From Acinetobacter phage Ab1-TPeters, in the sequence record PP763253.1: a stretch of DNA of 64,000 bases; one strand, written 5' to 3'. The notes under the pieces were generated by a model. The model did no database searches and was not told where the DNA came from. It saw nothing but the letters and a program-made list of their open reading frames with translations. Of this stretch, positions 7,916 to 36,437 are shown piece after piece. Position 1 is the stretch's first letter; each line of letters begins with the position of its first letter. The translations under genes were made by a program, and so were the position numbers.

Positions 7916-8038
7916 ATGGCTACACTGTTAATTAAATTTGCTTTAATTTCGCTTTTTATTTTAGCTTTAATCGGGATTTTGTTTCTGATGAATCAGGCTA
8001 AACACGATTACATAAAACATGAGGAAGATGATCAATGA
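7916..8038 (+). CDS. small hydrophobic protein (40 aa)
   Basis: Not in ORF track; MATLLIKFALISLFILALIGILFLMNQAKHDYIKHEEDDQ, single TM helix. Confidence 0.25.
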   Translation: MATLLIKFALISLFILALIGILFLMNQAKHDYIKHEEDDQ

Positions 8039-8508
8039 AGAATTGGTACTCTAGAACTCCGTCTGATTGTTTGATTCCGACATTCACAACTAAAGAGCAT
8101 CGCTGGTTGAGTAACATGTGGCCAGCTAAGTTGATTATAGCTGGAATTGAGTATAATTCTAGTGAGAACGCATATCAAGCATTCAAGTATATCTCTGATA
8201 CTCAGCGCAGATATATAGCTAAACTTACCCCAGCTCACTCTAAGCATTATAGTAAAGAGAATCCACTAACTAATCCTCTATTTGAAGCAAGAAAGGTGGA
8301 GATTATGAGGCAAGCTCTTTATGCTAAATTTACGCAGAATCCTGATCTACGTGATCGTCTTACTTCAACTGGTGATTTGATCCTAGTTGAAGGGAATTGG
8401 TGGGGTGATTTATTCTGGGGAGTAAATAAGGACACTGGATTAGGTCAGAATAACCTAGGTGTTTTACTTATGGAAGTAAGGAGTGCTCTGCGTGACCAAC
8501 AAAGTTAA
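8035..8508 (+). CDS. NADAR / YbiA-like (DUF1768) protein
   Basis: LSNMWP...IEYNSSENAYQAFKY and LILVEGNWWGDLFWGVNKDTGLGQNNLGVLLMEVR match the YbiA/NADAR conserved blocks. Confidence 0.6.
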   Translation: MKNWYSRTPSDCLIPTFTTKEHRWLSNMWPAKLIIAGIEYNSSENAYQAFKYISDTQRRYIAKLTPAHSKHYSKENPLTNPLFEARKVEIMRQALYAKFTQNPDLRDRLTSTGDLILVEGNWWGDLFWGVNKDTGLGQNNLGVLLMEVRSALRDQQS

Positions 8509-17375: not shown

Positions 17376-19217
17376 GTGAGAAGTGAAGTGATTGAATTAG
17401 AAAATAAGGTAGTTGAAGCAAGTAAGGCTTACTATTCAGGTAATCCTATAATGAGTGACTCAGCATTTGATGAAATGATTGATGAGTTACGTAAAGTACA
17501 TCCTGAGTCAGAGTTGTTAAATACAGTTGGCTGGGGAGGTGAAGTAAATGAATCTCACTTAGAGAAATTCCCTCATTCTACTTTCATTGGTGGACTTCCT
17601 GAAATTAAGATTCACAATATTGAATCATTACCAGAATCTGAATTCTATGTTGAGTCAGATAAACTGGATGGAATTACAGGTGTAGCTTACTATGAAAACG
17701 GTGAACTAGTTCGAGTTCTTACTCGATTTGATGGTAAAGAAGGACTTGATATAACTAAGAACTTAGAGTATGCTAATATTCCTAAATCAGTTCCTGTAGG
17801 AATCAAATCAGTTCGAGGTGAAGTTCTTATTACCAGAAAGGATTTTGATGAAGTCTTATCTGAGCATTATTCGAATGAGCGTAACGCTGTAGCTGGAATG
17901 TGTAATCAGAAGAATCTAAGTGATGAACTTAAGAAATATATTAAGTTTGTTGCATATGATATTCCTGAATCAGAAGATTTACCTCACTTGAAATCTAAGT
18001 GGGATAAGCTACGTATGATTGAAGCATGTAAATTTAACCCAGTAAACTATACAGTTCACCTATCTAGAGACTCAGTAATTCAGAGTTTAAAAGAATTCAA
18101 TCCCTACGAGAGATCAATTGAATTTCTTCTTGATGGCGCAGTTGTAGATATCCAGTCTGAAAATAAAACTGTCAAGGTAAAGTACCCAGCTGTAATAAAA
18201 GAAGTTGAAGTAGTCTGTGTAATCTGGCAGCAATCAAAACACGGTAAACTTATTCCAGTAATTCAGACTAAACCAATTGAACTTGACGGAGCAATGGTTA
18301 CTCGGTTTAGTGGATTCAATGCTAAGGCCATTAGCGATAACGGAATTGGAGCTGGAGCAATAATTAAAGTTTGTAGATCAAACATGGTTATTCCTCACTG
18401 GCATTCAACAGTAAAATCAACTCAACCAGATTTACCTGAAGAGGTATATGGTGAAAAGGTTTATTGGGATGGTGTTCATCTAGCTGTGTCAGTGGATGTA
18501 AAGAAACCTTTCCTACATAACTTACTAGCAGTGAATAAGGTTGACGGAATAGGCTGGACTGCAATCACAGAAGCAGTTTCAGTTCTAGGAATTCAAGATG
18601 CATCTCAACTGGTTAACATTTCTAGATTGATCAAAGAGCATAAACCCACAGCTAACTTGATTGTCGGAACTAAGAATCTCTTAGATCACTTCGGGGACAG
18701 TGTTCGTTACCATAAGTTAATTCAAACTTTAGAGAACATCACTAGCCGGACTTACACAATTGCGGATTTGATCGAAATGATGAATCTGAAAGGTGTAGGT
18801 GGAACTGCAGCTCATACTATTGGTCGTGAGGTAAGTCATGGTGAATTCCTATGGATGCTAAGTGATGGAGCTCTTTCAGAAGATCTGGCTAAGAAGTTAC
18901 CTAATTACGTAGCTTGTAATTCTATTATTGAGAATAGATCATATATTCTTGAAATTCTAGAATTAGATCTTGAGATTGTAGACTACGTAGTTGAAGAGCC
19001 TAAAGAAGGATTGAAGGTATGTGCAACTGGGTCACTTTCAATGACTAGAAGCAAGTTGTTTAATGAATGGGCTAAACACGGAGTAATTGAGACAGATGCT
19101 GGAAAAGCTGACGTTTTAGTTTGTTCAGGTGAGGGCTCATCTAAGTGGAAAACTGCTAAGAAACGTGGTATTCCTATTTTAACTGAAGAAGAGTTCGTCT
19201 CTCAATATCTCAAGTGA
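17376..19217 (+). CDS. ligA: NAD-dependent DNA ligase
   Basis: 613 aa; adenylation motif ESDKLDG; N-terminal Ia-like domain (YY..NPIMSDSAFDEMIDEL); C-terminal BRCT-like segment. Confidence 0.85.
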   Translation: MRSEVIELENKVVEASKAYYSGNPIMSDSAFDEMIDELRKVHPESELLNTVGWGGEVNESHLEKFPHSTFIGGLPEIKIHNIESLPESEFYVESDKLDGITGVAYYENGELVRVLTRFDGKEGLDITKNLEYANIPKSVPVGIKSVRGEVLITRKDFDEVLSEHYSNERNAVAGMCNQKNLSDELKKYIKFVAYDIPESEDLPHLKSKWDKLRMIEACKFNPVNYTVHLSRDSVIQSLKEFNPYERSIEFLLDGAVVDIQSENKTVKVKYPAVIKEVEVVCVIWQQSKHGKLIPVIQTKPIELDGAMVTRFSGFNAKAISDNGIGAGAIIKVCRSNMVIPHWHSTVKSTQPDLPEEVYGEKVYWDGVHLAVSVDVKKPFLHNLLAVNKVDGIGWTAITEAVSVLGIQDASQLVNISRLIKEHKPTANLIVGTKNLLDHFGDSVRYHKLIQTLENITSRTYTIADLIEMMNLKGVGGTAAHTIGREVSHGEFLWMLSDGALSEDLAKKLPNYVACNSIIENRSYILEILELDLEIVDYVVEEPKEGLKVCATGSLSMTRSKLFNEWAKHGVIETDAGKADVLVCSGEGSSKWKTAKKRGIPILTEEEFVSQYLK

Positions 19218-19634: not shown

Positions 19635-19690
19635 CCTGTTTCTTAAACAATCTACAAGCCTGTTGAAATGTCGGGGCGGTTCGAACCGCC
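19635..19690 (+). promoter_or_regulatory. conserved bipartite intergenic element copy plus palindrome
   Basis: CCTGTTTCTTAAACAATC...AAGCCTGTTGAAATGTCGGGG then GGCGGTTCGAACCGCC palindrome. Confidence 0.45.
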
Positions 19691-19724
19691 TTATACTTTT
19701 ATAATATACACTGGAGTTTATATC

Positions 19725-20345
19725 ATGGCTACTAAAATTTCGAAAATCGTTGTTGCTTTAGAAGGTGCTGCAATTGAGGTTAACGGTCTATCTTACAAAG
19801 TAAGTCAAGGTGCTTTGTATGATGCAGATGGTGAAAAATTAACTCCACGAAAGTTAGGCACAACTTGGTCTGAAATCTTCGAAATGTCTGGAATAAATTT
19901 GGATCCTAAGAAATCTGAACTTGCTTCTTCAGAAGACATTATTGAAGAAGTAAAGAATACTAAGGTAGATGTTCCTGAGAATAAGGATGACTCTTCAAAC
20001 AATCAACAAGACAGTAAACAAGATAGTCAGAACGATCAACAGGATAACCGAGGTCGTCAACCTCGAAAAGAGATAGCTTCTGACGCTAACTTGGAATATT
20101 ACACAACTCCAGGACAGAAAGCTGCTCTAGCTCCAATTTATGAGAAGTCTGATAATAAGACAGCTCAAATGATTATGAGCTACTGGAAAGATGAGATGGA
20201 TCGTGCCACAGTTGTACGAGTTAATCGCGATCAAGTTCTTGAGCTTGATGAAGTGTTTAAGGCTGCGTTAGAAACAGGTGAACACAATATCCCATCACGT
20301 ACATTGAATTCGTTGAAAGCGAAACACGTTGCATTATCTAAATAA
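19725..20345 (+). CDS. hypothetical protein with acidic Q/D/S-rich central region
   Basis: Start moved from 19668 (inside conserved intergenic element and palindrome) to ATG 19725 with RBS GGAG. Confidence 0.35.
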   Translation: MATKISKIVVALEGAAIEVNGLSYKVSQGALYDADGEKLTPRKLGTTWSEIFEMSGINLDPKKSELASSEDIIEEVKNTKVDVPENKDDSSNNQQDSKQDSQNDQQDNRGRQPRKEIASDANLEYYTTPGQKAALAPIYEKSDNKTAQMIMSYWKDEMDRATVVRVNRDQVLELDEVFKAALETGEHNIPSRTLNSLKAKHVALSK

Positions 20346-20351
20346 GATTAC

Positions 20352-20378
20352 GGGGAGTTTAGGCTCCCCTAATTTTTG
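20352..20378 (+). terminator. rho-independent terminator
   Basis: GGGGAG-TTTAGG-CTCCCC hairpin followed by TAATTTTTG. Confidence 0.5.
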
Positions 20379-20438
20379 TACTTAGGATTTACGCTGGATA
20401 GGTCTCTGAAATAACCTGAAAAGCTGTTTTTAGTAGAG

Positions 20439-21170
20439 GTGAATAAGATGTCGTTAAACAAATATTCAGTGGTTTTCTCAGGGACTCAAGGTTCAGGTAA
20501 AACCACTTTAACAAACGCTTGGTCAAAATTAGCTGGAATTCCATATAAAGCAGTTGAGACTAGAAAGTACGTGCCTGAGGGCATTTCTTCACATAAAGAT
20601 ATTATTAATCTTTCTGTAACTAACCCTGAAGTAGCTATTAAATTCCAATCTGATTTAATTCAGAACCGATTCAAACTCTTCAGTGAGTTAATGGAATCAG
20701 ATCAAAAGTTCACTAGTGATCGTGCTGTCATTGACAGTTATGTTTATTACTTGATGCATAACTCAATGTTTGCATGTGAAGAGAACAATCTAGCAAATAA
20801 TGGATTTACTCAAGCAAGTGTTGGTCTATACGATCTAACTGTCTTAATAAATCCTAAGCCTATACATGTTGAAGACGACAGCTTCAGAATTTCAAATTTA
20901 TTCTACAACCGTGCCTATGCTGATTTACATAAGGCTACAACACTTAGAATTTATGATGCGATTTTCGGTAATGCTAAGACATTGTCTAGCTACTCTCACG
21001 AAGGTGAGTTATACAATAATCTTCGCTCTTCAATAACTATGCATGTAGCTAAAACTCAATCTGGATATAAGCGTGGATTGATTATTCTTAATGAACCAGA
21101 TGGTATGATTCCAACTGAAAAACGCTTAAACCTAATTTCTAACGCAGTAAATGCATTTGACCAAATGTAA
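20439..21170 (+). CDS. P-loop kinase (candidate nucleotide or DNA-base kinase)
   Basis: Walker A VVFSGTQGSGKTT near N-terminus; lies directly upstream of the TS-family gene. Confidence 0.5.
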   Translation: MNKMSLNKYSVVFSGTQGSGKTTLTNAWSKLAGIPYKAVETRKYVPEGISSHKDIINLSVTNPEVAIKFQSDLIQNRFKLFSELMESDQKFTSDRAVIDSYVYYLMHNSMFACEENNLANNGFTQASVGLYDLTVLINPKPIHVEDDSFRISNLFYNRAYADLHKATTLRIYDAIFGNAKTLSSYSHEGELYNNLRSSITMHVAKTQSGYKRGLIILNEPDGMIPTEKRLNLISNAVNAFDQM

Positions 21171-21179
21171 GGAAATAAA

Positions 21180-22229
21180 ATGAAATCTTTTGCAGTGCAA
21201 AGTGCCAATCAAGCATTATATGAGTTGACTCAAGAATGTAAGAATGAAGGCTTTAGTTATTCAACAGAAACTTCTCATAATTCAACACCAGTTGTTTCAC
21301 TAGGTCTAACTCACTTAGAGCTTACTAATCCACTAAATCGCTTTATTAATATTAAAGGTCGAAATACTAACATCTTTGGTATTATTGGTGAGTGCATCTG
21401 GGTTCTATCTGGTTCAGCTGAACTAGGTGATTGGATGAAAACTTTAGTTCCTCGATCACCAGATTATGCAGATAATGGTGATACATGGCGTGCAGGTTAT
21501 GGCGAACGAATCTATTACAATGGTCAGATCAACTCTGTAATTGACAGATTAAAACGAGATAATAAAACTCGTCAAGCAGTTCTCTCAATTTATGACCCTA
21601 GCCGTGACACAGATGCTGGAATTAGTGCGGAAATCGGTTCTATTAATACCAAAGATCACGTTTGTAATATGTCAATGGCGTTTAAGATTCGTGATGGCAA
21701 GCTAAACATGACTCTGTTCAACCGCAGTAATGATATCTACTGGGGTTTGTTAAATGTTAACGTTCCAGAATTCACTCTTATTCAAGAGATCATTGCTGCT
21801 TACGTTGGTGTTGAAGTCGGTTCATATAATATTATCTCAGATGATTGTCATATGTATCAAATGCCAGTCATCATGAAACAAGCAGAAGCTGTAATTGAAA
21901 ATTATAACTGGATTGATTCGACAGGTCATGACGATCGTAAGTTGGAATTAAGCCCTAAGATTAATAATATTAATCTTTTGAGAAAGTTCTGTGAGCGAAT
22001 TATCTTTGAATCTGAGATTACTAACGAGAATTCAATTGAGGATTATGATCGTCGAATTCTTTCTATTATTGAAGAGTTTAAAGTTACTGGCAAATTAGCA
22101 GATTACGTTAAAATGGCTTGTTACTATTATGCTTCAACTCTAGGTGTAATTTACCCACGCCTTCGTGATTTAGAATCGTCTTATCTGGAAGAGTTAATCG
22201 ATAACTCTTACTTCAATCCCACGAAGTAA
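21180..22229 (+). CDS. thymidylate synthase family enzyme (dNMP hydroxymethylase/methylase-like) with ~90 aa C-terminal extension
   Basis: 349 aa; nucleophile region DHVCNMSMAFKI aligns with TS PCH...QFYV block; NRSNDIYWGLLNVNVPEFTLIQEIIAAYVG aligns with TS QRSxDxxLGxPFNIASYALL block. Confidence 0.65.
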   Translation: MKSFAVQSANQALYELTQECKNEGFSYSTETSHNSTPVVSLGLTHLELTNPLNRFINIKGRNTNIFGIIGECIWVLSGSAELGDWMKTLVPRSPDYADNGDTWRAGYGERIYYNGQINSVIDRLKRDNKTRQAVLSIYDPSRDTDAGISAEIGSINTKDHVCNMSMAFKIRDGKLNMTLFNRSNDIYWGLLNVNVPEFTLIQEIIAAYVGVEVGSYNIISDDCHMYQMPVIMKQAEAVIENYNWIDSTGHDDRKLELSPKINNINLLRKFCERIIFESEITNENSIEDYDRRILSIIEEFKVTGKLADYVKMACYYYASTLGVIYPRLRDLESSYLEELIDNSYFNPTK

Positions 22230-22237
22230 GATCCGTC

Positions 22238-22270
22238 AGCTCTTGATTCCGGTCAAGAGCTTTTTATTTT
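22238..22270 (+). terminator. rho-independent terminator
   Basis: AGCTCTTGA-TTCCGG-TCAAGAGCT hairpin followed by TTTTTATTTT. Confidence 0.5.
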
Positions 22271-22296
22271 GTAATAAACAACGTAAGAGAAATGTA

Positions 22297-22980
22297 ATGA
22301 ACCCAACCAAATTAGTTTCAAAGATTCTCTCCGTATTCCGTTTCGCTGGAATACCTATTATTGGCGATCGTTTAAACATTGCTGAGCATTCATATGAAGT
22401 TAGTTTATATGCAACTAAACTAGCTCGTCAACTTCTTAAAGATGGTCACATTGATGGAGCGAAAGCCCATCTTATTGTTGAACATGCTGTCCTACATGAC
22501 ATACCTGAAACGATGACTGGAGATATTCCTTACCCAGTTAAATCTCAATATCCACAGTTAAAAGAAATTTTAGATAAAATCGAGGAAGATATTACCTTTT
22601 CTGAGTTGTCAATCTTTCCTATTCATTATGACACTGACGTTTTATTCATTGTTAAACTATGTGATCTTTTAGCGGTATTCCGTGAAATGTCTGCTGAATT
22701 AGATTTAGGAAATTATGAATTGAATGAGGGTTATGTTAAATCTAACTGTCTAAAAATTTTAGAAACAGCTATTAATAAATATAAGCTAGACACTCCAGCT
22801 AAAGTAGCTGCAATGCAAGAGATCGCTTTTGACTTTATGTCACTTAAGAGTAAAAATGAGTTGAAAGGAATCTTAGTTTCAGCTATTCTCTGTCAGTTAG
22901 AATTTAATGGTGTAGATAAAGATGAATATCGAGAGCTTGATCAAAGATTTACAGAAGAGTGTAAAGCCTCAGTCTCTTAA
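22297..22980 (+). CDS. HD-domain 5'-deoxynucleotidase (YfbR-like)
   Basis: Start moved from 22243 (inside terminator); H..EVSLYATKLA and LHDIPETMTGDIPYPVK match the YfbR HD...D metal-binding blocks (YfbR: YHDASEVLTGDLPTPVK). Confidence 0.55.
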   Translation: MNPTKLVSKILSVFRFAGIPIIGDRLNIAEHSYEVSLYATKLARQLLKDGHIDGAKAHLIVEHAVLHDIPETMTGDIPYPVKSQYPQLKEILDKIEEDITFSELSIFPIHYDTDVLFIVKLCDLLAVFREMSAELDLGNYELNEGYVKSNCLKILETAINKYKLDTPAKVAAMQEIAFDFMSLKSKNELKGILVSAILCQLEFNGVDKDEYRELDQRFTEECKASVS

Positions 22981-23926
22981 TGCACGTGTATTTAATGGCC
23001 GAGCTAAAGAGTTTGATCCAGCTGAACATGAAGTACTTGGAGAATCAACTGATCATTATCACTATAACTGTCCTTTCTGTTTAGAAGAAAGAGGTAAGGA
23101 AGATGATGATGGTAAGTTCTATTGGAACTTCCAAAAATTTGTAGGTTGGTGTTTTAAGTGCAAAACTATCGGATTCCTCAAGACAGATAAACCAATTGAG
23201 CAAGTTAAGATTGATATGATGCTACAGTCATTTATATCGAATGCTTCAAGAATTGAGTATGAGCTAATGAGAGAAATCTTTAACTCATCAATTAGCTTTA
23301 ACTGTCTTGATTTTTCATCTAAGTTGTCTGAAAGAGCTTTAAACTATCTAGATGAACGTATTCCGTTTTACTCAGAAGTAGCAGAAGCTCTAGGATTTAC
23401 TGAAGTAAGTGAAACTGGGGTTTTAATTCCAACTTACATTAGAGGTCAATGTAAATCATATAACATTCGACTTTATAATCCTACAGGTAAAATGAAGTAT
23501 TACCTAGCTAAGAATGTTGAGAAGTATCCGTATTCACCAACTCGTGTATTTGATAAGGCTGGATCAGTTGGCCAAATCACATTAGTAGAGGGAGCATTTG
23601 ATGCTTTGGGAGCCTACTTCGATGGTTATTCAAACCCAATTGCATTGAATGGCTTATCTATAACTCCTATGATTGCCTTTCTACTAAAAACAATTATCCC
23701 AGAGTCAGTGGTAATTTATCTGGATGATGAAGAAAAATCTCAGAAGATTAAGCGAGATATTCGTAGAATATTTCCAACTGTGTCTAGTATAAGGGTTCGG
23801 AAAACATGGGGTCAAGATCCTGAAGAAGTATTTAAGTACAAATTAGGAAGAGCTTCTCCAGAGTATCTACTAGGTGTTTTAGAAAGAATTAATAAACTAA
23901 AGGAACTTAATAATGAATCCACGTGA
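22922..23926 (+). CDS. DNA primase (zinc-ribbon + TOPRIM)
   Basis: CPFC...CFKC zinc ribbon; TOPRIM-like LVEGAFDALGA and YLDDEE acidic motif; sits between nucleotidase and helicase genes. Confidence 0.5.
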   Translation: MNIESLIKDLQKSVKPQSLNARVFNGRAKEFDPAEHEVLGESTDHYHYNCPFCLEERGKEDDDGKFYWNFQKFVGWCFKCKTIGFLKTDKPIEQVKIDMMLQSFISNASRIEYELMREIFNSSISFNCLDFSSKLSERALNYLDERIPFYSEVAEALGFTEVSETGVLIPTYIRGQCKSYNIRLYNPTGKMKYYLAKNVEKYPYSPTRVFDKAGSVGQITLVEGAFDALGAYFDGYSNPIALNGLSITPMIAFLLKTIIPESVVIYLDDEEKSQKIKRDIRRIFPTVSSIRVRKTWGQDPEEVFKYKLGRASPEYLLGVLERINKLKELNNEST

Positions 23927-24644
23927 GGCCATGCTGACCTCGATCTTCAACTTTCCTGAGGAGTTTCGAGTAACTTCGAACCCTCGACCTAGAAAGGGGT
24001 TGTTCATTGGTAGTATCAATAAATGTGCACGTTATCTTCTAATTGCAATGAAAGTACCTAAGCAGTTAAATGGTATTAATGTAGTTTACTTAGAAAACGT
24101 TCAGATGTCTTCTAACGCTGATTATATCGTTAGCATGGGCAATGAGATTGAGAATGTCATGAGACGACATTTGAAATATCGTAAAGTGCCAATCCATGCA
24201 GATCAAATGCAGATAACTGAACTGGACGGTAAGATCAGAGGATTCCTTGACTTCGGTGTTGAAGTTGAAGGAATTGGTATGATTATTATTGATGCCAAGG
24301 GAATGAGTGAATCTGTATTTGCTCGATTCACTGCTGCAGCAACTTTGCTGGATTTCAAAGAAGATTACTTCTATCAGGTTCTTCATTACATCAATTCAGT
24401 TAAGCTAGAATATGGCTATATTGTTGGTGTTAATAGATCAACTGGGCAAGTTGCGGTTAAGGAAGTTTCTCGAGCTAAATACCAAGACTTATATAATAAG
24501 TCAATGGAACGTAGCAAGAAAATAATTGTTACTCCTATTGAAGAGTATCATACTCTTGAAGCTGCACCAGATAATGAATGTACTCAATGTGAATTCGTAT
24601 CTGCGTGCCGCCCAGAATTTTACGCCAGTTTAGGTGTAAATTGA
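23913..24644 (+). CDS. PD-(D/E)XK nuclease, Cas4-like with Fe-S cysteines
   Basis: D...E..IIDAKG core; one N-terminal Cys plus C-terminal CTQCEFVSAC cluster as in Cas4/RecB-family exonucleases. Confidence 0.5.
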   Translation: MNPREAMLTSIFNFPEEFRVTSNPRPRKGLFIGSINKCARYLLIAMKVPKQLNGINVVYLENVQMSSNADYIVSMGNEIENVMRRHLKYRKVPIHADQMQITELDGKIRGFLDFGVEVEGIGMIIIDAKGMSESVFARFTAAATLLDFKEDYFYQVLHYINSVKLEYGYIVGVNRSTGQVAVKEVSRAKYQDLYNKSMERSKKIIVTPIEEYHTLEAAPDNECTQCEFVSACRPEFYASLGVN

Positions 24645-26778: not shown

Positions 26779-29700
26779 ATGACCAAATTTTTGACTGACT
26801 TGACTTTACAAGATCAGGCTGTTTTTATTCTGTTATCTCAAACCAACAACTCAAGAGCATTTGAGAATGGTTATGCTGCTGACTTCTTAAATTTTGTTAC
26901 TATTAACTCTCCTCATCGAATTGGTTATGTTGAAATTACCAATGAAAATGAAGAGCATGTTCTTAATCAAGAAGAAATTTCTAAGTTGAAAGATTTAGTT
27001 GGAAACCGTAAGGTTATTCTTTTAGGTAAGAACACAGTAAAAGCAATTGCTGGTGAGTTGATTAACAACCGAGTTCGTTATTTATCTTTGTTGGATATGT
27101 CATACTTGACTTGTGCTAACTTAGGTAAAGTAGCGATTTGTGGTCACCCAATGTCTTACAAAGACGTCTTTAAAGGAAATGTTGATGCTCAACAGAAACT
27201 TATTCTACGTGTTGATGAGTTAATTCAGCCACGTGCTAAAGAATATGAAGTTGAAATTGTAGCTCCCTCACTGGACGATCTTGAAGACATCTTAAATCTA
27301 TGTGCCAATCAACCAGCCATTGGTTACGACATTGAAGCAAACGATTTAGATATTTGGGCAGCTCACTGGGAAAAGAACTTATTTAGTCTGTCAGTGTTCG
27401 AATCAGAATCTAAACTTATGTCATTCTGGTTTAACTGGCGTGAATTTACTTCGGATCATAAGAGATTATTTGAAAATTTCTTAGATAAGAATCAGTCTAA
27501 AATTTGGACTTACAACTGTACATATGAAATCCAAGCAGCTTGGAGAGTCTTCGGTAAACGTTACTTATTTCAAGATGCTTTGATCTTAACTACTATGGAT
27601 GCTAACCGTGGTGATCTTAAGACTAACGCTCGTAAGTATTTGAAATGTGATTTCTGGGAAGATGAGCTAGCGAGTATTCGTGATGTTTATGAAGCCTTTT
27701 TCAAATTATTCTTAGATAAAGGTAAAAAGAATTCAATACATGATGAGTTCAAAGCTTTTGTTAAATCAGATCAATTCCAGAATTTAGATAATCTTCGTGA
27801 GTTTCTGATTTCTAAGGGTAGAAAACCAGAATGGATGAATGATATTAATGATTTAGCAGTTGCTTTAGGTGAAGATGAAGTAGTCAAAGGTATCTCTGAA
27901 TTTCCATATCAGTGGTCAGCAGTTCCATTCGACATTTTAGGTAAATACTGTTGTTACGATTCAGCTTACACTCTGCCAATTGCAGCTAAACTGTACGGTA
28001 AGTATGAGAAAGGATATAAACATTACATCAAACACCCTTGGTTAGCTTGTATCTTTGAAGCATGGGGATGTGGTTGGGATGAATCTAAAGCTAAGGAAGT
28101 TGAGAAAGATTATTTACGTTTGATGAATGAATCTCTAAGTGAATTGATCTTAAATCTTCAACCTAAGTTAGGTCTTCGAGCTCTAGATGTTAAACCGATT
28201 CTTCAGTGGAAATTACCACATGAGGCTACTTCATACACAGCTACAGGTAAAGAACGTAAACATAAGGTGTTGTCTGAGTACGATCGTCATGGTTGGATTA
28301 AAGGTATTTACAATCCTGGTTCAAACACGGCTGATGCTCGAGCTGTATTCTGGGATGTTTACTTAACAGAACGAGTTGAGTTAGCAACATTTGCATATAC
28401 TCTTGTCAATGATCTTCGATTCAGAGGAATCTGGGAGAAGTTACTGATTAAGATGATTGAAATGACAGAGTTCAAGTCTAAAGATGAAAGTAAGACTGAG
28501 AACGAATTCTTAACTGAATATGGTGCAGCTCAAGTTCTTGAAATGTTGTCAGTATTCTTAGAAAATCCAAATTTAACTGATCGTGAGACAGTTAAGATCT
28601 TGGCTTCTAGTTTCACTGAGACGAATAAGACCTATAAAGACAATACTGGACGTAACGCTAAAGAAGTAATGGCAGCTCAGTATGAGATTCAATGTCAATT
28701 CTTTGGTGTTGACATTGATGATGAATCTACTTGGACTCCTGAATTCAAGATTCTATTCTTACTTCAGAAATATAAGAAAGTAGCGAAAGCTCTGTCTACT
28801 TATGTTAATGGTAAGTTAGGTCGAGGATGTGTATGGTTGTCTAAAGTATTTCCAGATCGTCCTCCAGTTCGATTGAAACCTTATCATGAGGTTGAGGAAG
28901 GATATAAACTTAAACTTGATGAGAAGTTAATTGCATTCTATGACTTTAATAGTTTGTCTGCATCAACTCACCGTTGGGGATCTGGATTCCATACTATTAG
29001 CCCAGGTGTAGCTATCCGCAGTGCTTTAGTTCCGTACTACAGCAATCAGATCTGGACTCATATTGACTTTAGTCAGGCTGAGTTGGTGATGTTGGCATTC
29101 TTCAGTCAAGACCCTAACATGATTAAAGTATTCATGGAAGGTGGAGATATGCACAGATATGTAGCTAGTCTAGTGTATCAGAAGAAGCCTGAGGATGTTA
29201 CTTCAGAAGAACGTCGTGTAGCTAAGACAGTATCATTTGGTATTGTTTACGGTAAGGGTATTGAGAACTTAGCTCTAGAAATCACTGGAGGTGATGTTCC
29301 TCGTGCTCAAGCAATTTTCGATGCTTTCTTCGTGTCATTCCCTGGAATCAAGAAATGGATGGATGAGCGTAAGACTCAAGGTCGTGAAACAGGTAAGGTG
29401 ACTAATCTGTTTGGTGCATTGATTGAGGTGGAAGATGGCTTCAGTAAAGGTAACGCTATTGATCGTCACTCAGTAAACTACCCAATCCAGTCTTCATCTT
29501 CAATGGTTGCTGGTGGTTCAATGTACGACTTGTGTTCTACAGTTGACCAACAAGGAATCTTTGGAACTGGAGTTGGATTCGTGCACGATGCATTAGATCA
29601 TACAGTTGATATCGACAATCTGGTTAACTTCTTAGTTTATTCTAAGAAAGTGATGCAGGATCAAGTTTATGAAGAACTTGGTACTCCGATGAAGATTGAC

Positions 29701-29988
29701 CAAGAGATTGGTGCGACAGCTCTAGACTTATGTGAGCTGAAGAGCTTCACTGAACTTGAAAATGGTTTAGAAATCATTCTCGGAGGTGACGAAGAGGCTG
29801 TAAATAAACTGGTTGACAAGTTTAGAGTAGAGAGTGCTAAGTACGTTATTGACAACACTGAAATCATTGACAGTTCAGACTCATATACATCTTGGGAAGG
29901 ATTGTTTACTGAGAAAGGTGCATATAGTTCAGATCGTGGTCAAACGTTAAAGAAAGTTAAGACTAAAGTGACTCTTCGCTATAGTTAA
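26779..29988 (+). CDS. family A DNA polymerase with 3'-5' exonuclease domain
   Basis: 1069 aa; Exo I IGYDIEAND; motif A HIDFSQAELVM; motif B RRVAKTVSFGIVYGKG; motif C FVHDALDH. Confidence 0.85.
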   Translation: MTKFLTDLTLQDQAVFILLSQTNNSRAFENGYAADFLNFVTINSPHRIGYVEITNENEEHVLNQEEISKLKDLVGNRKVILLGKNTVKAIAGELINNRVRYLSLLDMSYLTCANLGKVAICGHPMSYKDVFKGNVDAQQKLILRVDELIQPRAKEYEVEIVAPSLDDLEDILNLCANQPAIGYDIEANDLDIWAAHWEKNLFSLSVFESESKLMSFWFNWREFTSDHKRLFENFLDKNQSKIWTYNCTYEIQAAWRVFGKRYLFQDALILTTMDANRGDLKTNARKYLKCDFWEDELASIRDVYEAFFKLFLDKGKKNSIHDEFKAFVKSDQFQNLDNLREFLISKGRKPEWMNDINDLAVALGEDEVVKGISEFPYQWSAVPFDILGKYCCYDSAYTLPIAAKLYGKYEKGYKHYIKHPWLACIFEAWGCGWDESKAKEVEKDYLRLMNESLSELILNLQPKLGLRALDVKPILQWKLPHEATSYTATGKERKHKVLSEYDRHGWIKGIYNPGSNTADARAVFWDVYLTERVELATFAYTLVNDLRFRGIWEKLLIKMIEMTEFKSKDESKTENEFLTEYGAAQVLEMLSVFLENPNLTDRETVKILASSFTETNKTYKDNTGRNAKEVMAAQYEIQCQFFGVDIDDESTWTPEFKILFLLQKYKKVAKALSTYVNGKLGRGCVWLSKVFPDRPPVRLKPYHEVEEGYKLKLDEKLIAFYDFNSLSASTHRWGSGFHTISPGVAIRSALVPYYSNQIWTHIDFSQAELVMLAFFSQDPNMIKVFMEGGDMHRYVASLVYQKKPEDVTSEERRVAKTVSFGIVYGKGIENLALEITGGDVPRAQAIFDAFFVSFPGIKKWMDERKTQGRETGKVTNLFGALIEVEDGFSKGNAIDRHSVNYPIQSSSSMVAGGSMYDLCSTVDQQGIFGTGVGFVHDALDHTVDIDNLVNFLVYSKKVMQDQVYEELGTPMKIDQEIGATALDLCELKSFTELENGLEIILGGDEEAVNKLVDKFRVESAKYVIDNTEIIDSSDSYTSWEGLFTEKGAYSSDRGQTLKKVKTKVTLRYS

Positions 29989-30830: not shown

Positions 30831-32144
30831 ATGAATAACCGTATCAACCTAGTATTAAGCGTAGCTCGTGATTCAGACATCCGCAAGACTACCAATGGGG
30901 AAGTAACTAACATCGGTTTATATAATTTTAGATTCAAAGAGCCTGTTCCATTTGAGGGTGGATTATTCTGTCAAAAGATTTTTGGGCCAATCAAAGACTA
31001 CACTTGTGCATGCGGTGCACGTAAAGGTGGTAAGACAGTTGATGGTAAAGCACCATCTTGCGAGATCTGTGGGGTAGATCTAGTGAAGTCTGAGGTTCGT
31101 TCAAAACGTGAAGGTTATATTGATGCGAAAGTACATTATGTAAATGCATATGCAATGCCACTCTTGGGTGCAATTCTTCAAATTGGTGAGGGTAATATTG
31201 AAGGAATATGCAATGGTACTATGTATTTCCGTTTTAAAGAATCAATGAACGGTCTTCGTTCAATGTCTGGTAAGTTTTATTCAATTGAGCTATCAAAAGA
31301 AGACAAGACTTGGGGTACTTCTGCTGAGGAGCTCCTGGATGCAATTCAAGATCTTGATTTGGATTCTGCTTACATTATGAAGAACTGCAATAGCCGAGAC
31401 GTGAATCGCTATCACGATAAGGGTTACACTATTTCAGACTTCTTCTGCTCTCACGTGCGAGTGTCCCCTCCACGTACTCGTGATATGTCCGTAGTAAATA
31501 AGGATATATCATTTCACCCAGTAAACAACATCTACGCTCGTATCGTTCGAATTGGAGCACGAGTAGCAACTTTAACCAACCAGATTCTGGAATATGATGG
31601 TGAGTTAAACTTAGAGCAATTAAAACAAGTGATTCGTGGTGAATCAATTGTGCTCCAAGCGCTAATTGATGCCTTGTTGTTTAAAGGAGCTACAGATTAC
31701 CGTGGAAATGAGATTCCATCAGTTATCTCTTCACTTGGAGGTAAGGAAGGTATCGTCCGTGGTAACTTACTGGGTAAACGAGTTGACTTCTCTGGTCGAT
31801 CTGTGATCATTTCCGGACCTGAACTTCCGTTAGATACAATCGGTGTTCCTTGGAAAATGATGTATGAGTTGCTTAAGCCGTTTATTCTGAATAAGCTAAT
31901 TGAGCATCTTGAGGATCTTGATGGTATTTTAACCAGCCAGACTTTGAAGAAAGCTCGAACTATGTATGCTAACAAGAGCACAGAAGCAATGATGTTTATG
32001 CGAGAGTTAGCAGACAGACACTGGGCATTCTTGAATCGTGCACCGTCACTTCACAGATACTCAGTAATGGCGTTCAAAATACAGCTTCACAGTGGTAAAG
32101 CAATTAAGCTGCCACCTATGCTTTGTTCACCATTCAACGCGGAT
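30831..32144 (+). CDS. multisubunit RNA polymerase beta-prime subunit, N-terminal half, exon 1
   Basis: Zinc-binding CACG...CEICG region aligns with E. coli beta-prime C70-C88; GKRVDFSGRSVIISGPEL aligns with [36 protein letters not shown] aligns with LLNRAPTLHRLGIQAFEP; exon ends ...PFNAD, the first three residues of the catalytic NADFDGD motif. Confidence 0.85.
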
Positions 32145-32504
32145 TAATCCCAAGCAGAGTCCGCCCAGATTAGAAATGATTTGGACAAAAACTTCCTTAA
32201 TTGCTGGAACGTCCTTAATGGATAATCAGCAGCTGGGTTCAATTATGAACAGAGTTCAACGACTATCGAAAGCCGATTTAGAGTGGGGACAATCTAAATT
32301 GAAGCAAGTAGAGTACAGCCAAGCGGTAGGTTGTTACGTGGAATGGCGTAACAATAATTCCTTTAAATGGAAACAGGAAGACCTAATCACTGTAGACCAC
32401 AGTGTAAGGATATGAGATAGTCTCAACGTTCTATAGTAATATAGAGCAGTGTTTATAGCCAATAAACACGGTCGTAAGCTAGCGATTTACGATGAAGATA
32501 ATTG
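32145..32504 (+). other. group I self-splicing intron (ORF-less, 360 nt)
   Basis: 5' exon ends in U32144. Internal guide GUCCGC (32159-32164) pairs with exon GCGGAU, with a U-G wobble at the splice site. P7 halves CAACGACUAUCG (~32256-32268) and GAUAUGAGAUAGUCUC (~32409-32425) form GACUA/UAGUC. Terminal G at 32504 sits immediately before exon 2, which encodes FDGDQMAIH. Confidence 0.8.
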
Positions 32505-33709: not shown

Positions 33710-34441
33710 ATGAATAAACGTATCTCAGATCATCTTCTTAAAATTTCTGAATTGAAAAGACTTGCCAAACATAACTCTTATCAATATGGATCTTACAGGA
33801 AAGCAGCTGATGTAATTAGAAATCTAAACTTCGAACTAACTCCGGATTATGATTTCAAATCACTTCGTGGAGTAGGAGCTGCAATTGATTCTGAAATACG
33901 TGAATTCTTAGAGTGTGGTGATAAAACCCCAAGATTCAAAAAGTACTACTCTGAAATCTCAGCTGAGTATATTGCCAATGACGAAGAAGTTAAAGATTCT
34001 ATTCTTGACTTCTTTACGGAATTTGGTAGTGACTACAAGGTATCTGTAGCTGGTTCAATAAGAAGAAACTCACCTTTCATTAGGGACGTTGATTTACTAA
34101 CTACAGCTCCAGCTAAAGTAATCTACGACATGTTAGAAAAATCTGCTAGATTTGAATACGTCTATGGGGCAGATCGTAAGGTTAGATTCAAAGACGTATT
34201 TCTTGATCTGGAATATGACATCAAGATGTGTCCTGAAGAGTCATGGATCCCTTGTTTACTGCACTCAACTGGATCAGCGGCACATAATATCCAGATGAGA
34301 GCTAGAGCCAAGAAGCTCGGTCTTACTCTAAATGAATACGGTTTATTTGACAAAGACAAACCTGTTAGGCAATGTTATACAGATGAGCGTGAGATCTTTG
34401 AGGATCTTGGAATGATTTATATCTCTCCGGAGTATCGCTGA
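33710..34441 (+). CDS. minimal family X DNA polymerase (Pol beta-like)
   Basis: 243 aa; HhH-like LRGVGAAIDSEI; VAGSIRRNSPFIRDVDLLTTAP matches Pol beta GSFRRG...DMDVLLTHP; C-terminus LHSTGSAAHNIQMRARAKKLGLTLNEYGLF...EREIFEDLGMIYISPEYR matches Pol beta YFTGS..FN..MR..A...G..LNEY.......E..IF..L...Y..PE.R. Confidence 0.6.
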   Translation: MNKRISDHLLKISELKRLAKHNSYQYGSYRKAADVIRNLNFELTPDYDFKSLRGVGAAIDSEIREFLECGDKTPRFKKYYSEISAEYIANDEEVKDSILDFFTEFGSDYKVSVAGSIRRNSPFIRDVDLLTTAPAKVIYDMLEKSARFEYVYGADRKVRFKDVFLDLEYDIKMCPEESWIPCLLHSTGSAAHNIQMRARAKKLGLTLNEYGLFDKDKPVRQCYTDEREIFEDLGMIYISPEYR

Positions 34442-34491: not shown

Positions 34492-34761
34492 ATGAAACTA
34501 ACAATAGAAACTGACCAAAATATAAAGTCAGTAAAACTGGAAATTGAGTTTGAAGGTGGTTCAGTAACTAAAACTTCTCAGAATTTTGTTACTGAAAATT
34601 CAACAACTCAAAATCACGTTCACTCTACACCTGTAGAGTCACCTAAACAGTTTGAAGAAGTAAAACCTGTTAAGCGTGAAGTTAAAGAAATACATCAGGA
34701 AGACAAGCCTGAAGAAAGAGCACCTAACATAGATTCTGGCATGATGGATACAACAATATGA
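34492..34761 (+). CDS. hypothetical protein
   Basis: 89 aa ORF. Confidence 0.3.
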   Translation: MKLTIETDQNIKSVKLEIEFEGGSVTKTSQNFVTENSTTQNHVHSTPVESPKQFEEVKPVKREVKEIHQEDKPEERAPNIDSGMMDTTI

Positions 34762-35621
34762 AAATTATTCGATCTTACTTTTTCAGCAATGCTTTTAAGT
34801 ATGAAAACATAGAGCCAACTAAAGATAATTTAGTTAAATTGAAAGAGCAATATGAAAAAGTAACTGGCTTAGCTGTAGTTGACGATATTATTACTGATTT
34901 TGATATGATTGAAGAAATTGGTAATTTTGTTGAATCCAATAACTTTAAATCTCCAGATCAACATTCTAGTTTTAAAGCTGGTCCAATTGCTAGTGATTAT
35001 TTTCGCTTTATTTCAATTACGAAGGCTTTTGAGGCTCGAGAGATTGGAGATGAAGTGTTCTATGTTGATAGTGACATGGTTTTCAGTGATAAAGCTAAAG
35101 AATTCTTTAAAGGTAAGCTAGGTAATGATAAACCTAAGATGAAAACTATGTGTATTTCATCTTTATCAGCAAATGGAAGTAGAATTAGTGGTTACGTCGA
35201 GCACTGGTTTAACGGTATCTTCCAGACTAATATGGCTGCAGCTTACTTAATGCTGCATTGCATTGAATATATTCTTTTTGAAGATGACTCCAATATCGAT
35301 GAGAAACTCAAAAATGACCTCAACAGCTTTTTAATTAGAATGAAGAATCGTCAGAAAGTTCCTTGGGGTCTGATTGGAACTAGACTTATGGAGTTCTTAG
35401 TTAAAACTGGCCGACTTGAAATTATCCAAGATAATTCTATGACTTCAGTTGTCCTAGGAACTTATACTAACAAGTTTATCCGTGAAAACACTAAGCTTGA
35501 CGTAAACGTTCTACTAAATCATATTGATACAGCTAATACTGCTAATAATAGAAATTATGATTTAGACATTGTAATGACTAACACTGGGTTTAACCGAGTT
35601 TATTTATTGGATTTCAAATGA
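34758..35621 (+). CDS. putative GT-A fold glycosyltransferase (DxD motif)
   Basis: 287 aa; FYVDSDMVF resembles the DxD nucleotide-sugar binding motif of GT-A/GT8-like transferases; first gene of a sugar-nucleotide cluster; weak. Confidence 0.3.
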   Translation: MKIIRSYFFSNAFKYENIEPTKDNLVKLKEQYEKVTGLAVVDDIITDFDMIEEIGNFVESNNFKSPDQHSSFKAGPIASDYFRFISITKAFEAREIGDEVFYVDSDMVFSDKAKEFFKGKLGNDKPKMKTMCISSLSANGSRISGYVEHWFNGIFQTNMAAAYLMLHCIEYILFEDDSNIDEKLKNDLNSFLIRMKNRQKVPWGLIGTRLMEFLVKTGRLEIIQDNSMTSVVLGTYTNKFIRENTKLDVNVLLNHIDTANTANNRNYDLDIVMTNTGFNRVYLLDFK

Positions 35622-35963: not shown

Positions 35964-36437
35964 ATGAGCGATAAGAAAGTCATTGGCTTTACTTGTTCAA
36001 CTTTCGACTTACTGCATGCTGGTCATGTAGTAATGCTCGAAGAGTGCCGCAAGCATTGCGACTACCTAATTGTTGGTCTTCAGAACGACCCTACACTGGA
36101 TAGACCAACTAAAAATAAACCAATACAGAGTATCATTGAACGTCAAATTCAACTGCGTGGTTGCTCCTACGTGGATGAAATTGTTGTTTACAACACTGAG
36201 GCTGATCTGGTAGATCTTCTCTTATCTTATAATATTGATGTGAGAATTTTAGGTGTTGAATATCAGAAAGCTGAATTCACTGGAAAGCAAGAATGCTTAG
36301 ATAAGGGAATTCACCTCATATTTAATTCTAGAGATCATTCTTTCAGCTCTTCTGAGTTACGTAAACGAGTTCATTCAGCTGAAGAATCAAAGAGATCAGA
36401 AATTTCTTTTACTGAGGATCAGTTTCGTGAAAAATAA
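35964..36437 (+). CDS. cytidylyltransferase-fold sugar-phosphate nucleotidyltransferase (TagD / HldE-C-like)
   Basis: FDLLHAGH (HxGH) motif; YLIVGLQNDPTLDRPTKNKP and YVDEIVVY...DVRILGVEY follow the TagD / HldE domain II pattern. Confidence 0.65.
   Translation: MSDKKVIGFTCSTFDLLHAGHVVMLEECRKHCDYLIVGLQNDPTLDRPTKNKPIQSIIERQIQLRGCSYVDEIVVYNTEADLVDLLLSYNIDVRILGVEYQKAEFTGKQECLDKGIHLIFNSRDHSFSSSELRKRVHSAEESKRSEISFTEDQFREK

Follow-up and report, generated by a model that had tools for sequence, protein, structure and literature searches.

The stretch of DNA considered here, 64,000 nucleotides from Acinetobacter phage Ab1-TPeters (sequence record PP763253.1; hereafter the window), carries between positions 20,439 and 22,980 three consecutive genes encoding a P-loop kinase (kinase A), an enzyme with the fold of the thymidylate synthase (TS) ThyA, and an HD-domain phosphohydrolase resembling the 5'-deoxynucleotidase YfbR. 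These genes probably constitute the core of a pre-replicative pathway which would supply the triphosphate of 5-hydroxymethyl-deoxyuridine (5-hmdU), namely 5-hmdUTP, and exclude thymidine nucleotides, with modified thymine in the DNA as the outcome. The evidence consists of family and fold assignments, conserved residues, a conserved linkage of the genes, and the membership of the phage in a clade known for modified DNA. The general logic of such pathways and the modified state of the RP13-like group of phages are known already, as is the hydroxymethylase family; what is new here is a kinase and a nucleotide hydrolase from families not previously tied to the phage 5-hmdU pathway.

Organization of the Locus

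The open reading frames (ORFs) as first delimited are consecutive and all lie on the + strand, at 20439-21170 for the kinase, 21180-22229 for the TS-like enzyme and 22243-22980 for the HD enzyme. The succession of a kinase, a TS-family protein and an HD-domain protein, which the original prediction had described, is present, and Pfam and PHROGs agree on it. The ATG codons at 20448 (kinase A) and 22297 (HD enzyme) are the starts given by a gene caller on an identical Logan contig. A GTG at 20439 is the alternative start of kinase A, and for the HD enzyme the ATG is preferred because the upstream TTG at 22243 falls within a terminator-like hairpin (22238-22261). Seven terminator-like sites, all consensus matches, occur between 19000 and 24800, compared with 2.6 +/- 1.6 in shuffled sequences. 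Bracketed by two such hairpins, the genes of kinase A and the TS-like enzyme look like one transcription unit, as far as sequence signals can tell. In the window as a whole, early and replication genes occupy the + strand up to ~41 kb, and structural genes the - strand. Past the end of the window, the contig carries structural-looking genes only.

The ThyA-Fold Enzyme

The product of the second gene matches PF00303 (Thymidylat_synt) over residues 53-228 with 58 bits (cut-off 24.3; 1.1e-15), and its best PHROG is phrog_3676, 'thymidylate synthase' (8.8e-76). In an alignment with Escherichia coli ThyA, Cys162 takes the place of the catalytic C146, Arg182, Ser183 and Asp185 those of R166, S167 and D169, His224 and Tyr226 those of H207 and Y209, and Glu71 that of E58, while Asn194 corresponds to the uracil-specifying N177 and is invariant in an alignment of nine sequences. 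An intact nucleophile Cys and intact binding blocks, as originally claimed, are therefore found in this protein. Trp80, Trp83 and His147 of E. coli ThyA are replaced by Ser, Tyr and Asn, respectively. In TS, Trp80 controls the access of solvent and is critical for hydride transfer. The structure of the W80G form of the E. coli enzyme (1KZJ) is among the fold matches of the phage protein.

With 349 residues against 264 in E. coli ThyA, the enzyme has ~85 extra residues, in fair agreement with the 90 or so predicted for its C-terminus. Most of them form three C-terminal helices (264-320) in the AlphaFold2 model (pLDDT 88.6), and 123 residues, these helices included, follow the His-x-Tyr motif. 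The protein scores below the cut-off of all seven NCBIfam equivalog models of TS, its best scores being 64.2 bits against 174.55 (TIGR03283) and 54.9 against 327 (NF002497). In a sequence search of the PDB, the best match is MilA, a cytidine monophosphate (CMP) hydroxymethylase, at 2e-18, and the best TS reaches 1e-9 and at most 41 bits. The fold search likewise places MilA first, with a TMq of 0.71-0.74 over 323-344 columns, compared with 0.56 over 263 columns for E. coli TS. Because the match to MilA spans the C-terminal helices, the extension is a feature common to a proven hydroxymethylase.

Among phages, the closest relatives of the enzyme belong to E. coli phages EP_H11 and IME392 (46-50% identity) and Ralstonia phage RP13 (38%), followed by the TS homologues of ViI-like phages (Ackermannviridae) at 34-41%, while gp230 of PhiW-14, named 'deoxyuridylate hydroxymethyltransferase', shows 29% identity over 88%. 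In tblastn, the ViI-like TS homologues obtain 180-182 bits and PhiW-14 gp230 145 bits. The enzyme is closer to these proteins, which come from phages with 5-hmdU-derived DNA, than to solved TS, PhiW-14 and ViI both being makers of 5-hmdU-derived bases (PMC5977210, PMC8989533). By sequence, it is not an orthologue of ThyA or a bona fide TS, and sequence together with predicted fold argues strongly for an enzyme of the deoxyuridine monophosphate (dUMP) hydroxymethylase type.

It is improbable, in our view, that the three genes serve ordinary housekeeping, with a divergent but genuine TS, a thymidylate or deoxynucleoside kinase and a general 5'-deoxynucleotidase boosting deoxythymidine triphosphate (dTTP) in a phage with canonical DNA. 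Such a role would agree with the PF00303 match and the conservation of all nucleotide-binding residues, with the PHROGs labels 'thymidylate kinase' and 'thymidylate synthase', and with the carriage of thyA by many phages, and hydroxymethylase chemistry is not provable from sequence alone (PMC5977210). Yet the enzyme scores 3- to 20-fold under every TS equivalog cut-off, lacks Trp80, has a C-terminus extended as in MilA, and finds its nearest relatives among enzymes of phages with 5-hmdU-derived DNA. Furthermore, a nucleotidase beside an enzyme making deoxythymidine monophosphate (dTMP) would be a futile pairing, and thymine hypermodification has been shown in members of the clade (PMC12686479).

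The original prediction had proposed a hydroxymethylase acting on either dUMP or deoxycytidine monophosphate (dCMP). Its first part stands, since the enzyme groups with hydroxymethylases and not with ThyA, but dCMP is an unlikely substrate because the uracil-specifying Asn is kept. T4 gp42 has Asp at the position of E. coli ThyA Asn177. A dCMP hydroxymethylase of the T-even or MilA type, with cytosine replaced by 5-hydroxymethylcytosine, would fit the best match among solved structures, which is MilA, and a myovirus (MW202897) in which an HD gene follows a 'pyrimidine hmase' gene; we nevertheless regard it as the least probable of all the alternatives considered, because the enzyme and all its relatives have Asn where MilA has Asp, the deoxycytidine triphosphate (dCTP) deaminase encoded in the window would destroy dCTP to make deoxyuridine nucleotides, and the clade is modified on thymine (PMC12686479).

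The HD Phosphohydrolase

The third gene product, for which an HD domain of the YfbR type had been suggested, matches PF12917 (YfbR-like; also HD_3) with 56.8 bits (cut-off 25.9; 3e-15) and retains the H...HD...D metal ligands, so that the suggestion is upheld. Its best PHROG is phrog_7076, 'dATP triphosphohydrolase' (8.2e-21), and in the PDB it matches YfbR (1.9e-5) and DatZ (1.3e-3), OxsA-like proteins also being related. The alignment with YfbR spans AEHS, HD...E...GD.P.PVK and K..D. The motif HDIPETMTGDIPYPVK matches HDASEVLTGDLPTPVK of YfbR almost residue for residue, and the downstream K..D is also kept. By NCBIfam model NF003009, the protein is not an orthologue of YfbR (39.9 against a cut-off of 122).

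DatZ exemplifies the use by a phage of the YfbR/DatZ-type HD fold to destroy one canonical deoxynucleoside triphosphate (PMC8065100), and in phages of the PhiW-14 type an enzyme with dTTPase/dUTPase activity is known to be linked to the pathway (PMC13458397, PMC5977210). In MW202897, an unrelated myovirus of 40 kb, the gene directly 3' of 'pyrimidine hmase' and next to a glucosyltransferase gene is of the YfbR/DatZ family. From this context, we propose that the HD enzyme of the window may exclude deoxythymidine and/or deoxyuridine nucleotides.

Kinase A

Kinase A matches Pfam AAA_28 (PF13521) with 35.1 bits (cut-off 27) and, weakly, dNK; its homologues carry a precomputed PF13521 assignment, and PHROGs labels it 'thymidylate kinase' (3.8e-8). 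Its AlphaFold2 model (pLDDT 83) resembles NadR ribosylnicotinamide kinase, deoxynucleoside kinases (dNK) and thymidylate kinases (TMPK), the matches to NadR reaching 1e-8 in BFVD and 2e-5 in the PDB at 16-18% identity, and no polynucleotide kinase is among the 50 best fold matches. Only five relatives sharing words with kinase A were found among 5.8 billion proteins, and an exhaustive HMMER search of 1.84 billion proteins returned 38 full-length representatives at E<1e-30, plus a wider family of shorter kinases. Invariant in the family are Walker A, H49, F66-Q67, D91-R92 ('SDR', after strand 3), D96 and R147, which include a lid Arg and a Phe-Gln pair. We associate these features with base-binding sites of the dNK/TMPK type. 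The median isoelectric point (pI) of the family is 5.8, with a value above 8 in one of the 38 members, compared with 8.3-8.7 in three validated 5-hmdU DNA kinases, pI being weak evidence as a proxy for DNA binding.

Several closer assignments were tried and rejected. Kinase A falls outside the 5-hmdU DNA kinase (5-HMUDK) family as defined by PF18748, which it does not match, whereas M6 gp54 does so at 7.7e-18; in comparisons with M6 gp54, ViI gp67 and PhiW-14 gp37, BLAST and hhalign align the P-loop alone (~20 columns). Nor is it a deoxynucleoside monophosphate (dNMP) kinase of the T4 gp1 type (hhalign probability 15%, with only the P-loop aligned), and nothing detectable beyond the P-loop connects it with the second AAA_28 kinase of the window (3525-4073).

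Since AAA_28 is the family of the NadR kinase domain and NadR proteins are the top named fold matches, kinase A might be a ribosylnicotinamide kinase, engaged in NAD+ salvage for the NAD-dependent ligase and placed beside the TS gene incidentally. The ligase gene does lie two genes 5' of kinase A in the window and in locus L060, and NADAR and NUDIX genes are also present in the window. We consider this very improbable, as the linkage that survives in 13 diverged loci is with HD, TS, dCMP deaminase or dUTPase genes and not with the ligase, the nucleotidyltransferase of the window is far closer to heptose-1-phosphate and glycerol-3-phosphate nucleotidyltransferases than to nicotinamide mononucleotide adenylyltransferase, and kinase A is only distantly identical to NadR.

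Gene Context in Related Loci

The context of the kinase A family was compared in 13 loci. In eight of them (the window, L015, L060/61, L067, EP_H11, IME392, L005 and L006) the TS gene adjoins the kinase gene in the order kinase-TS-HD, followed by primase, helicase and the family A DNA polymerase PolA, with a mutual protein identity of mostly 30-46%. HD stands beside the kinase in RP13, L063 and L064 as well, which brings the loci with a neighbouring HD gene to 11 of 13, and in L062 and L068 the kinase lies beside a dCMP deaminase, with no TS or HD gene within 7 kb. Directly upstream in L015 is a dUTPase of the dimeric type (dUTPase_2), and a dCTP deaminase belongs to the same gene block. In all 13 of these contigs the arrangement lies a short way 5' of the primase-helicase-PolA genes. 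The lasting partners of kinase A are nucleotide-pool enzymes. The adjacency of the three genes is not due to chance, their order being repeated in diverged relatives, and the proposed tie of the kinase and the YfbR-like enzyme to the hydroxymethylase is reinforced by tight and recurrent linkage, whether to the hydroxymethylase itself or to further enzymes of the pyrimidine pool.

A homologue of aGPT-Pplase1 adjoins the kinase in 4 of the 13 loci, all within the EP_H11 clade, where it lies directly 5' of the kinase gene and is itself preceded by PIG-L, glycosyltransferase-like, ATP-grasp and decarboxylase genes. The naming of these proteins conflicts between databases: the Pfam copy used calls PF18723 '5-hmdU DNA kinase, helical domain' ('HMUDK_hel'), and GenBank names Ackermannviridae homologues of the same proteins 'aGPT-Pplase1', which could mislead annotation. 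They are called aGPT-Pplase1 here, after their homology to ViI gp160 and their GenBank names. PF18723 proteins are encoded in L001 (6197-7168), L005 (8984-9928) and L006 (47-991), and their Ackermannviridae homologues correspond to ViI orf00160.

In L062 (2355-4244) and L068 (3147-7017), the place that the TS and HD genes take in the other phages is filled by a block preceding kinase A, which comprises a CsrA homologue and between two and four genes for TerD-domain proteins. Inteins interrupt helicase, PolA and topoisomerase genes of relatives (L060 11616-14483, L062 10514 onward and L067 4499-6895), and no intein match was obtained in the window's own copies of these genes.

Phage Group and Probable Modification of the DNA

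The TS-like enzyme, kinase A, HD enzyme, primase, helicase and PolA all have their closest proteins in EP_H11, IME392 and RP13. EP_H11 is syntenic with the window over kinase-TS-HD-primase-helicase-PolA, and also has in common with it a fragment of the RNA polymerase (RNAP) beta' subunit, the DNA polymerase PolX, the NAD-dependent ligase and the dCTP deaminase. At the nucleotide level, a megablast of 20000-24000 gave no match in GenBank phages. The window PolA is 32% identical to that of RP13 over 95%; its best PDB match is 9qhs, a phage PolA of 1142 residues (5e-55), and the 1306-residue chains 9qlh and 9qli also match, 1306 residues being the length of the YerA41 polymerase (bioRxiv 10.1101/2025.03.26.645540). 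Judged by its SP15-like PolA and the synteny of its replication genes, the phage is a member of the RP13/EP_H11/YerA41/Carin-5 group, defined as RP13-like by Sieskind et al. (PMC12686479).

Hypermodified thymidine has been shown in this group for YerA41, Carin-5 and SP-15, and liquid chromatography-tandem mass spectrometry found ~75% (Carin-5) and ~70% (YerA41) of thymidines to bear a linker-phosphate-sugar hypermodification (PMC12686479). In a table of the same study, every RP13-like member, EP_H11 and IME392 included, is credited with a homologue of TS and a deaminase acting on dCTP or dCMP. The literature thus already covers the clade, its TS homologue and its deaminase, while this phage, kinase A and the HD enzyme were not found there.

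Further decoration of 5-hmdU is likely from clade membership, and plain 5-hmdU is also possible. Profile searches of all six-frame ORFs of the 64 kb detected neither aGPT-Pplase1 nor 5-HMUDK. When all proteins of the L005 cluster were compared with the window by tblastn, only the block from the kinase to PolA matched, and Pfam and PHROGs scans of ~40 window ORFs returned no transferase, pyridoxal phosphate (PLP) enzyme, radical-SAM enzyme or glycosyltransferase.

The window sequence turned up solely in a single sequencing run, Logan run SRR28813070, in the form of short contigs (5.6, 11.4 and 14.6 kb); exact-pattern scans of IMG/VR and GTDB genomes were negative, as was the search of GenBank phages. 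It may be speculated that so broken an assembly is in keeping with DNA that resists amplification.

Substrate of Kinase A

On the strength of its fold, pI and gene neighbours, we lean towards the monophosphate, 5-hmdUMP, as the substrate of kinase A. A role at the nucleotide level is favoured because the persistent partners of the kinase are nucleotide-pool enzymes and its family is acidic to neutral, and it would parallel the dNMP kinases that adjoin the hydroxymethylase in ViI and PhiW-14.

Less probable, though deserving serious consideration, is that kinase A is an independently recruited, NadR-like and non-homologous replacement of 5-HMUDK, adding phosphate to the 5-hydroxymethyl group of 5-hmdU, in newly synthesized DNA or possibly in the free nucleotide 5-hmdUMP, to create a leaving group for transferases of the aGPT-Pplase type; the roles of the TS-like and HD enzymes would be unchanged. 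Position speaks for such a replacement, given that ViI gp67, a validated 5-HMUDK, is encoded immediately 5' of the homologous TS gene, in the same place and orientation as kinase A (PMC8989533), that kinase A lies between the aGPT-Pplase1 homologue and the TS gene in EP_H11, L005 and L006, and that the IMG/VR loci L024-L026, which read aGPT-Pplase1 ... gp67-type kinase - TS, have a gp67-type kinase in this very slot. RP13, EP_H11 and IME392 possess aGPT-Pplase1, but '5HMUDK could not be detected' in them (bioRxiv 10.1101/2025.03.26.645540). In the interval 1-72 kb of EP_H11, neither a PF18748-like ORF nor a gp1-like dNMP kinase was detected, kinase A being the sole candidate there. In the window, the nucleotide step could be left to the separate dNMP kinase, and host kinases are able to handle 5-hmdUMP (PMC13458397).

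Against this replacement, the similarity of kinase A to 5-HMUDKs is confined to the P-loop in both BLAST and profile comparison, its family is acidic to neutral, unlike the basic validated DNA kinases, and its fold neighbours are small-molecule kinases. aGPT-Pplase1 accompanies the kinase in one clade only, and no aGPT-Pplase-like ORF was seen in the six frames of the window or in the examined stretches of L015, L060 and L062, the source contig of L015 not having been returned by a scan of viral contigs. The kinases of L062 and L068, moreover, neighbour a dCMP deaminase and have no TS gene within 7 kb. Phosphorylation of 5-hmdUMP remains our preferred activity for kinase A.

Proposed Pathway

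From these observations, we infer every substrate, every product and the DNA composition in the pathway that follows. The dCTP deaminase would provide a supply of deoxyuridine nucleotides. Cys162 of the TS-like enzyme would then attack C6 of dUMP, with a methylene group taken from methylene-tetrahydrofolate (CH2-THF). A real TS has the Trp80 shield and a C-terminal tail that closes the active site; lacking both, the phage enzyme would, we propose, hydrate the exocyclic methylene rather than reduce it, the overall reaction being dUMP + CH2-THF + H2O -> 5-hmdUMP + THF. Kinase A, presumably co-transcribed with this enzyme, would convert 5-hmdUMP to 5-hmdUDP, from which a host nucleoside diphosphate kinase would produce the triphosphate. 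The HD enzyme would dephosphorylate canonical thymidine and/or deoxyuridine nucleotides, and their removal would lead the SP15-like PolA to put 5-hmdU in place of thymidine. After replication, 5-hmdU would probably be decorated, given the clade, by the products of genes situated outside the window. The logic of a deaminase feeding a hydroxymethylase and a kinase, with a nucleotidase excluding the canonical nucleotide, was part of the original prediction, and homology, structure prediction, linkage and clade context support it.

A number of points weigh against this pathway or parts of it. A gp1-like dNMP kinase is already encoded in the window, so that a second kinase for 5-hmdUMP is not obviously needed, and when a pathway was reconstituted in E. 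coli, the host's own kinases were enough to convert 5-hmdUMP to the triphosphate (PMC13458397). NadR, the best-named structural relative of kinase A, phosphorylates the 5'-OH of a nucleoside and not a monophosphate. Neither base nor phosphate specificity of the HD enzyme can be read from its sequence; the two lysines by which DatZ neutralises the triphosphate (its K81 and K116) have counterparts in both YfbR and the HD enzyme and therefore do not separate monophosphate from triphosphate substrates (PMC8065100). Kropinski et al. have warned that sequence alone cannot separate hydroxymethylases from TS (PMC5977210). Finally, no homologue of kinase A or of the HD enzyme was detectable in YerA41 and Carin-5, yet the DNA of both is modified, which means that members of the group can do without the pair.

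Other Genes of the Window

The features of the locus and the window genes linked to the pathway are collected in Table 1. The further genes that the original prediction had named, that is, the dCTP deaminase, the dNMP kinase and the additional P-loop kinase, were all confirmed, and the deaminase expected to feed dUMP exceeds its TIGR02274 cut-off. The deaminase has a homologue of 45% identity in EP_H11. The dNMP kinase shows weak similarity to ViI dnk and has a homologue in Carin-5 but none in EP_H11 1-72 kb. It possibly offers an alternative or additional route from 5-hmdUMP to 5-hmdUDP. The gene of the second AAA_28 kinase overlaps its start by 4 nt.

Table 1. Coordinates of the three-gene locus and of window genes with a possible link to the pathway.
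Feature	Position	Strand	Remarks
Kinase A (P-loop kinase, AAA_28, C-terminal beta-rich addition)	20448-21170	+	240 aa, ATG start
ThyA-fold enzyme, proposed dUMP 5-hydroxymethylase	21180-22229	+	PF00303; 349 aa
YfbR-like HD phosphohydrolase	22297-22980	+	PF12917; 227 aa, ATG start
Terminator-like hairpin (GGGGAGTTTAGGCTCCCC, then T-run) just 5' of kinase A	20352-20369	+	consensus match only
Terminator-like hairpin between TS-like and HD genes	22238-22261	+	consensus match only
dCTP deaminase	39919-40509	+	PF22769 4e-29; TIGR02274 95.4 bits, cut-off 92.8
T4 gp1-like dNMP kinase	4070-4663	+	phrog_139 4e-43; Pfam DNMK below cut-off
Second AAA_28 P-loop kinase	3525-4073	+	Pfam; module membership uncertain
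Family A DNA polymerase, SP15-like/RP13-like subfamily	26779-29988	+	would incorporate and copy the modified nucleotide
Nucleotidyltransferase	35964-36437		157 aa; nearest RfaE domain II (heptose-1-phosphate adenylyltransferase) and glycerol-3-phosphate cytidylyltransferase

Vibrio phage 150E35-1 encodes a homologue of the nucleotidyltransferase with 53% identity. In the window, a phosphatase gene of the HAD-IIB/phosphomannomutase-like type lies beside the nucleotidyltransferase gene (the pair spanning 35964-37182). As a lead only, the two enzymes could be the source of an activated sugar or polyol that serves as donor in DNA hypermodification. Upstream of it, an ORF of 287 residues (34758-35621) has two homologues only among 5.8 billion proteins, too few for a useful model, and is followed by an ORF of 102 residues.

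Other window genes touch on replication and transcription. An NAD-dependent DNA ligase (17376-19217) and PolX (pol beta-like, 33710-34441), both common to EP_H11, fit the base-excision-repair toolkit that has been discussed for the uracil-DNA glycosylase-fused polymerases of the group (bioRxiv 10.1101/2025.03.26.645540). A Cas4-like PD-(D/E)XK nuclease (23913-24644; weak Pfam match, phrog_1706 4e-14) is encoded between primase and helicase, in a slot conserved in L015, L060 and L010. An ORF of 438 residues (30831-32147) contains RNA polymerase Rpb1 domains 1-2 only, its EP_H11 homologue being annotated as beta' subunit, and a separate piece with Rpb1 domains 3-5 occurs in L060 (788-2281), which suggests that the multisubunit RNA polymerase is split in the RP13-like group. 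The ORF preceding kinase A (19668-20345) encodes an acidic-, Gln- and Ser-rich protein with no family match, and a terminator-like hairpin at 19673-19692 suggests that its true start is an ATG near 19725. The early region also encodes an actin-like protein of the ParM/Alp7A/MreB-like type (37199-38140), and the window further contains a histidine phosphatase of branch 1 (136-834), an NADAR protein with a homologue in EP_H11 (8035-8508) and a NUDIX hydrolase (38828-39466).

Significance

The pathway predicts thymine-modified DNA that would withstand many restriction enzymes and be difficult to amplify and sequence, and such modification may be why the phage has been recorded only as short contigs. 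With the AAA_28 kinase and the YfbR-like HD enzyme, two conserved candidates become available for open steps in RP13-like phages, namely the pathway kinase and the exclusion of dTTP. If kinase A acted on the base hydroxymethyl group, it would replace the canonical 5-HMUDK that went undetected in RP13, EP_H11 and IME392 and would give the group access to its thymidine hypermodifications, which have a long linker and bear phosphate and sugar; if it did so on the mononucleotide, this would account for an early observation on SP-15, whose modified base is built at the level of the nucleoside triphosphate. A DNA or base-hydroxymethyl kinase from a second, unrelated family would be a case of convergent evolution and would widen the searches for hypermodification clusters, which are now seeded with 5-HMUDK sequences only. 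As for tools, 5-HMUDK is already used for the labelling of 5-hmU, and a hydrolase selective for dT/dU nucleotides would aid the production of fully substituted DNA in vivo.

Comparison with Known Systems

Among characterized systems, the cluster of Salmonella phage ViI (Kuttervirus), gp67 (5-HMUDK) - thyA - dnk - dUTPase, is part of the 5-NeOmdU pathway. Its TS homologue is 41% identical to that of the window over 197 residues (tblastn; 34% over 85% for ViI-like phages), a kinase gene directly precedes the TS gene and nucleotide-pool enzymes follow it, and 5-hmdUTP is made before replication, as we propose for the present phage. It differs in that kinase A is not homologous to gp67 or dnk beyond the P-loop, the position held by a dUTPase/NTP pyrophosphohydrolase in ViI is occupied here by the HD phosphohydrolase, searches of the window detected neither an aGPT-Pplase nor a PLP enzyme, and PolA is SP15-like where ViI has a T4-like gp43.

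The genes gp230 (dUMP hydroxymethyltransferase), gp231 (dNMP kinase) and gp232 (dUTPase) of Delftia phage PhiW-14 belong to the alpha-putrescinylthymine pathway and form a comparable three-gene block of a hydroxymethylase, a kinase and a nucleotide hydrolase. Cells infected with PhiW-14 contain hmdUTP and no dTTP because of a dTTPase (PMC5977210). The gene order is different, however, the kinase and hydrolase come from other families, and the likely counterpart of gp231 is the gp1-like dNMP kinase of the window, 16 kb away. By described activities, Bacillus phages SPO1 and phi-e, in which thymine is fully replaced by 5-hmdU, are also similar, having a dUMP hydroxymethylase, a deaminase as the source of dUMP, a dNMP kinase, and a dTTPase and a dTMPase by which thymidine nucleotides are depleted (PMC8989533), although they are unrelated phages of Gram-positive hosts.

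The RP13-like and SP15-like phages share with the window the PolA type and the primase-helicase-PolA synteny, together with the RNAP beta' fragment, PolX, the NAD-dependent ligase and the dCTP deaminase; EP_H11 and IME392 also have the kinase-TS-HD order, and RP13 the HD-kinase pair. The proteins nevertheless share no more than 30-50% identity, and no match is seen at the nucleotide level; in contrast to EP_H11 and L005, the window has no aGPT-Pplase1, PIG-L, glycosyltransferase-like or ATP-grasp genes 5' of the kinase, and SP-15 has enzymes of the ThyX type (PMC5977210).

At the level of single enzymes, DatZ of cyanophage S-2L (an HD dATP triphosphohydrolase) and E. coli YfbR (a 5'-deoxynucleotidase) belong to the same HD subfamily as the third gene product, in which the metal ligands, the E/D of metal site B, a Pro and two Lys are conserved (PMC8065100). 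It differs from them in having Phe, not Trp, as the ribose-excluding aromatic residue, and from DatZ in having Gly at the base-selecting position, which is Ile22 in DatZ. MilA, the CMP 5-hydroxymethylase of mildiomycin biosynthesis (PDB 5B6D, 5JNH), acts on a ribonucleotide, is ~21% identical to the TS-like enzyme and has Asp (cytosine) where the latter has Asn (uracil), yet it is the best solved relative of the phage enzyme by both sequence and fold, the C-terminal helical extension included.

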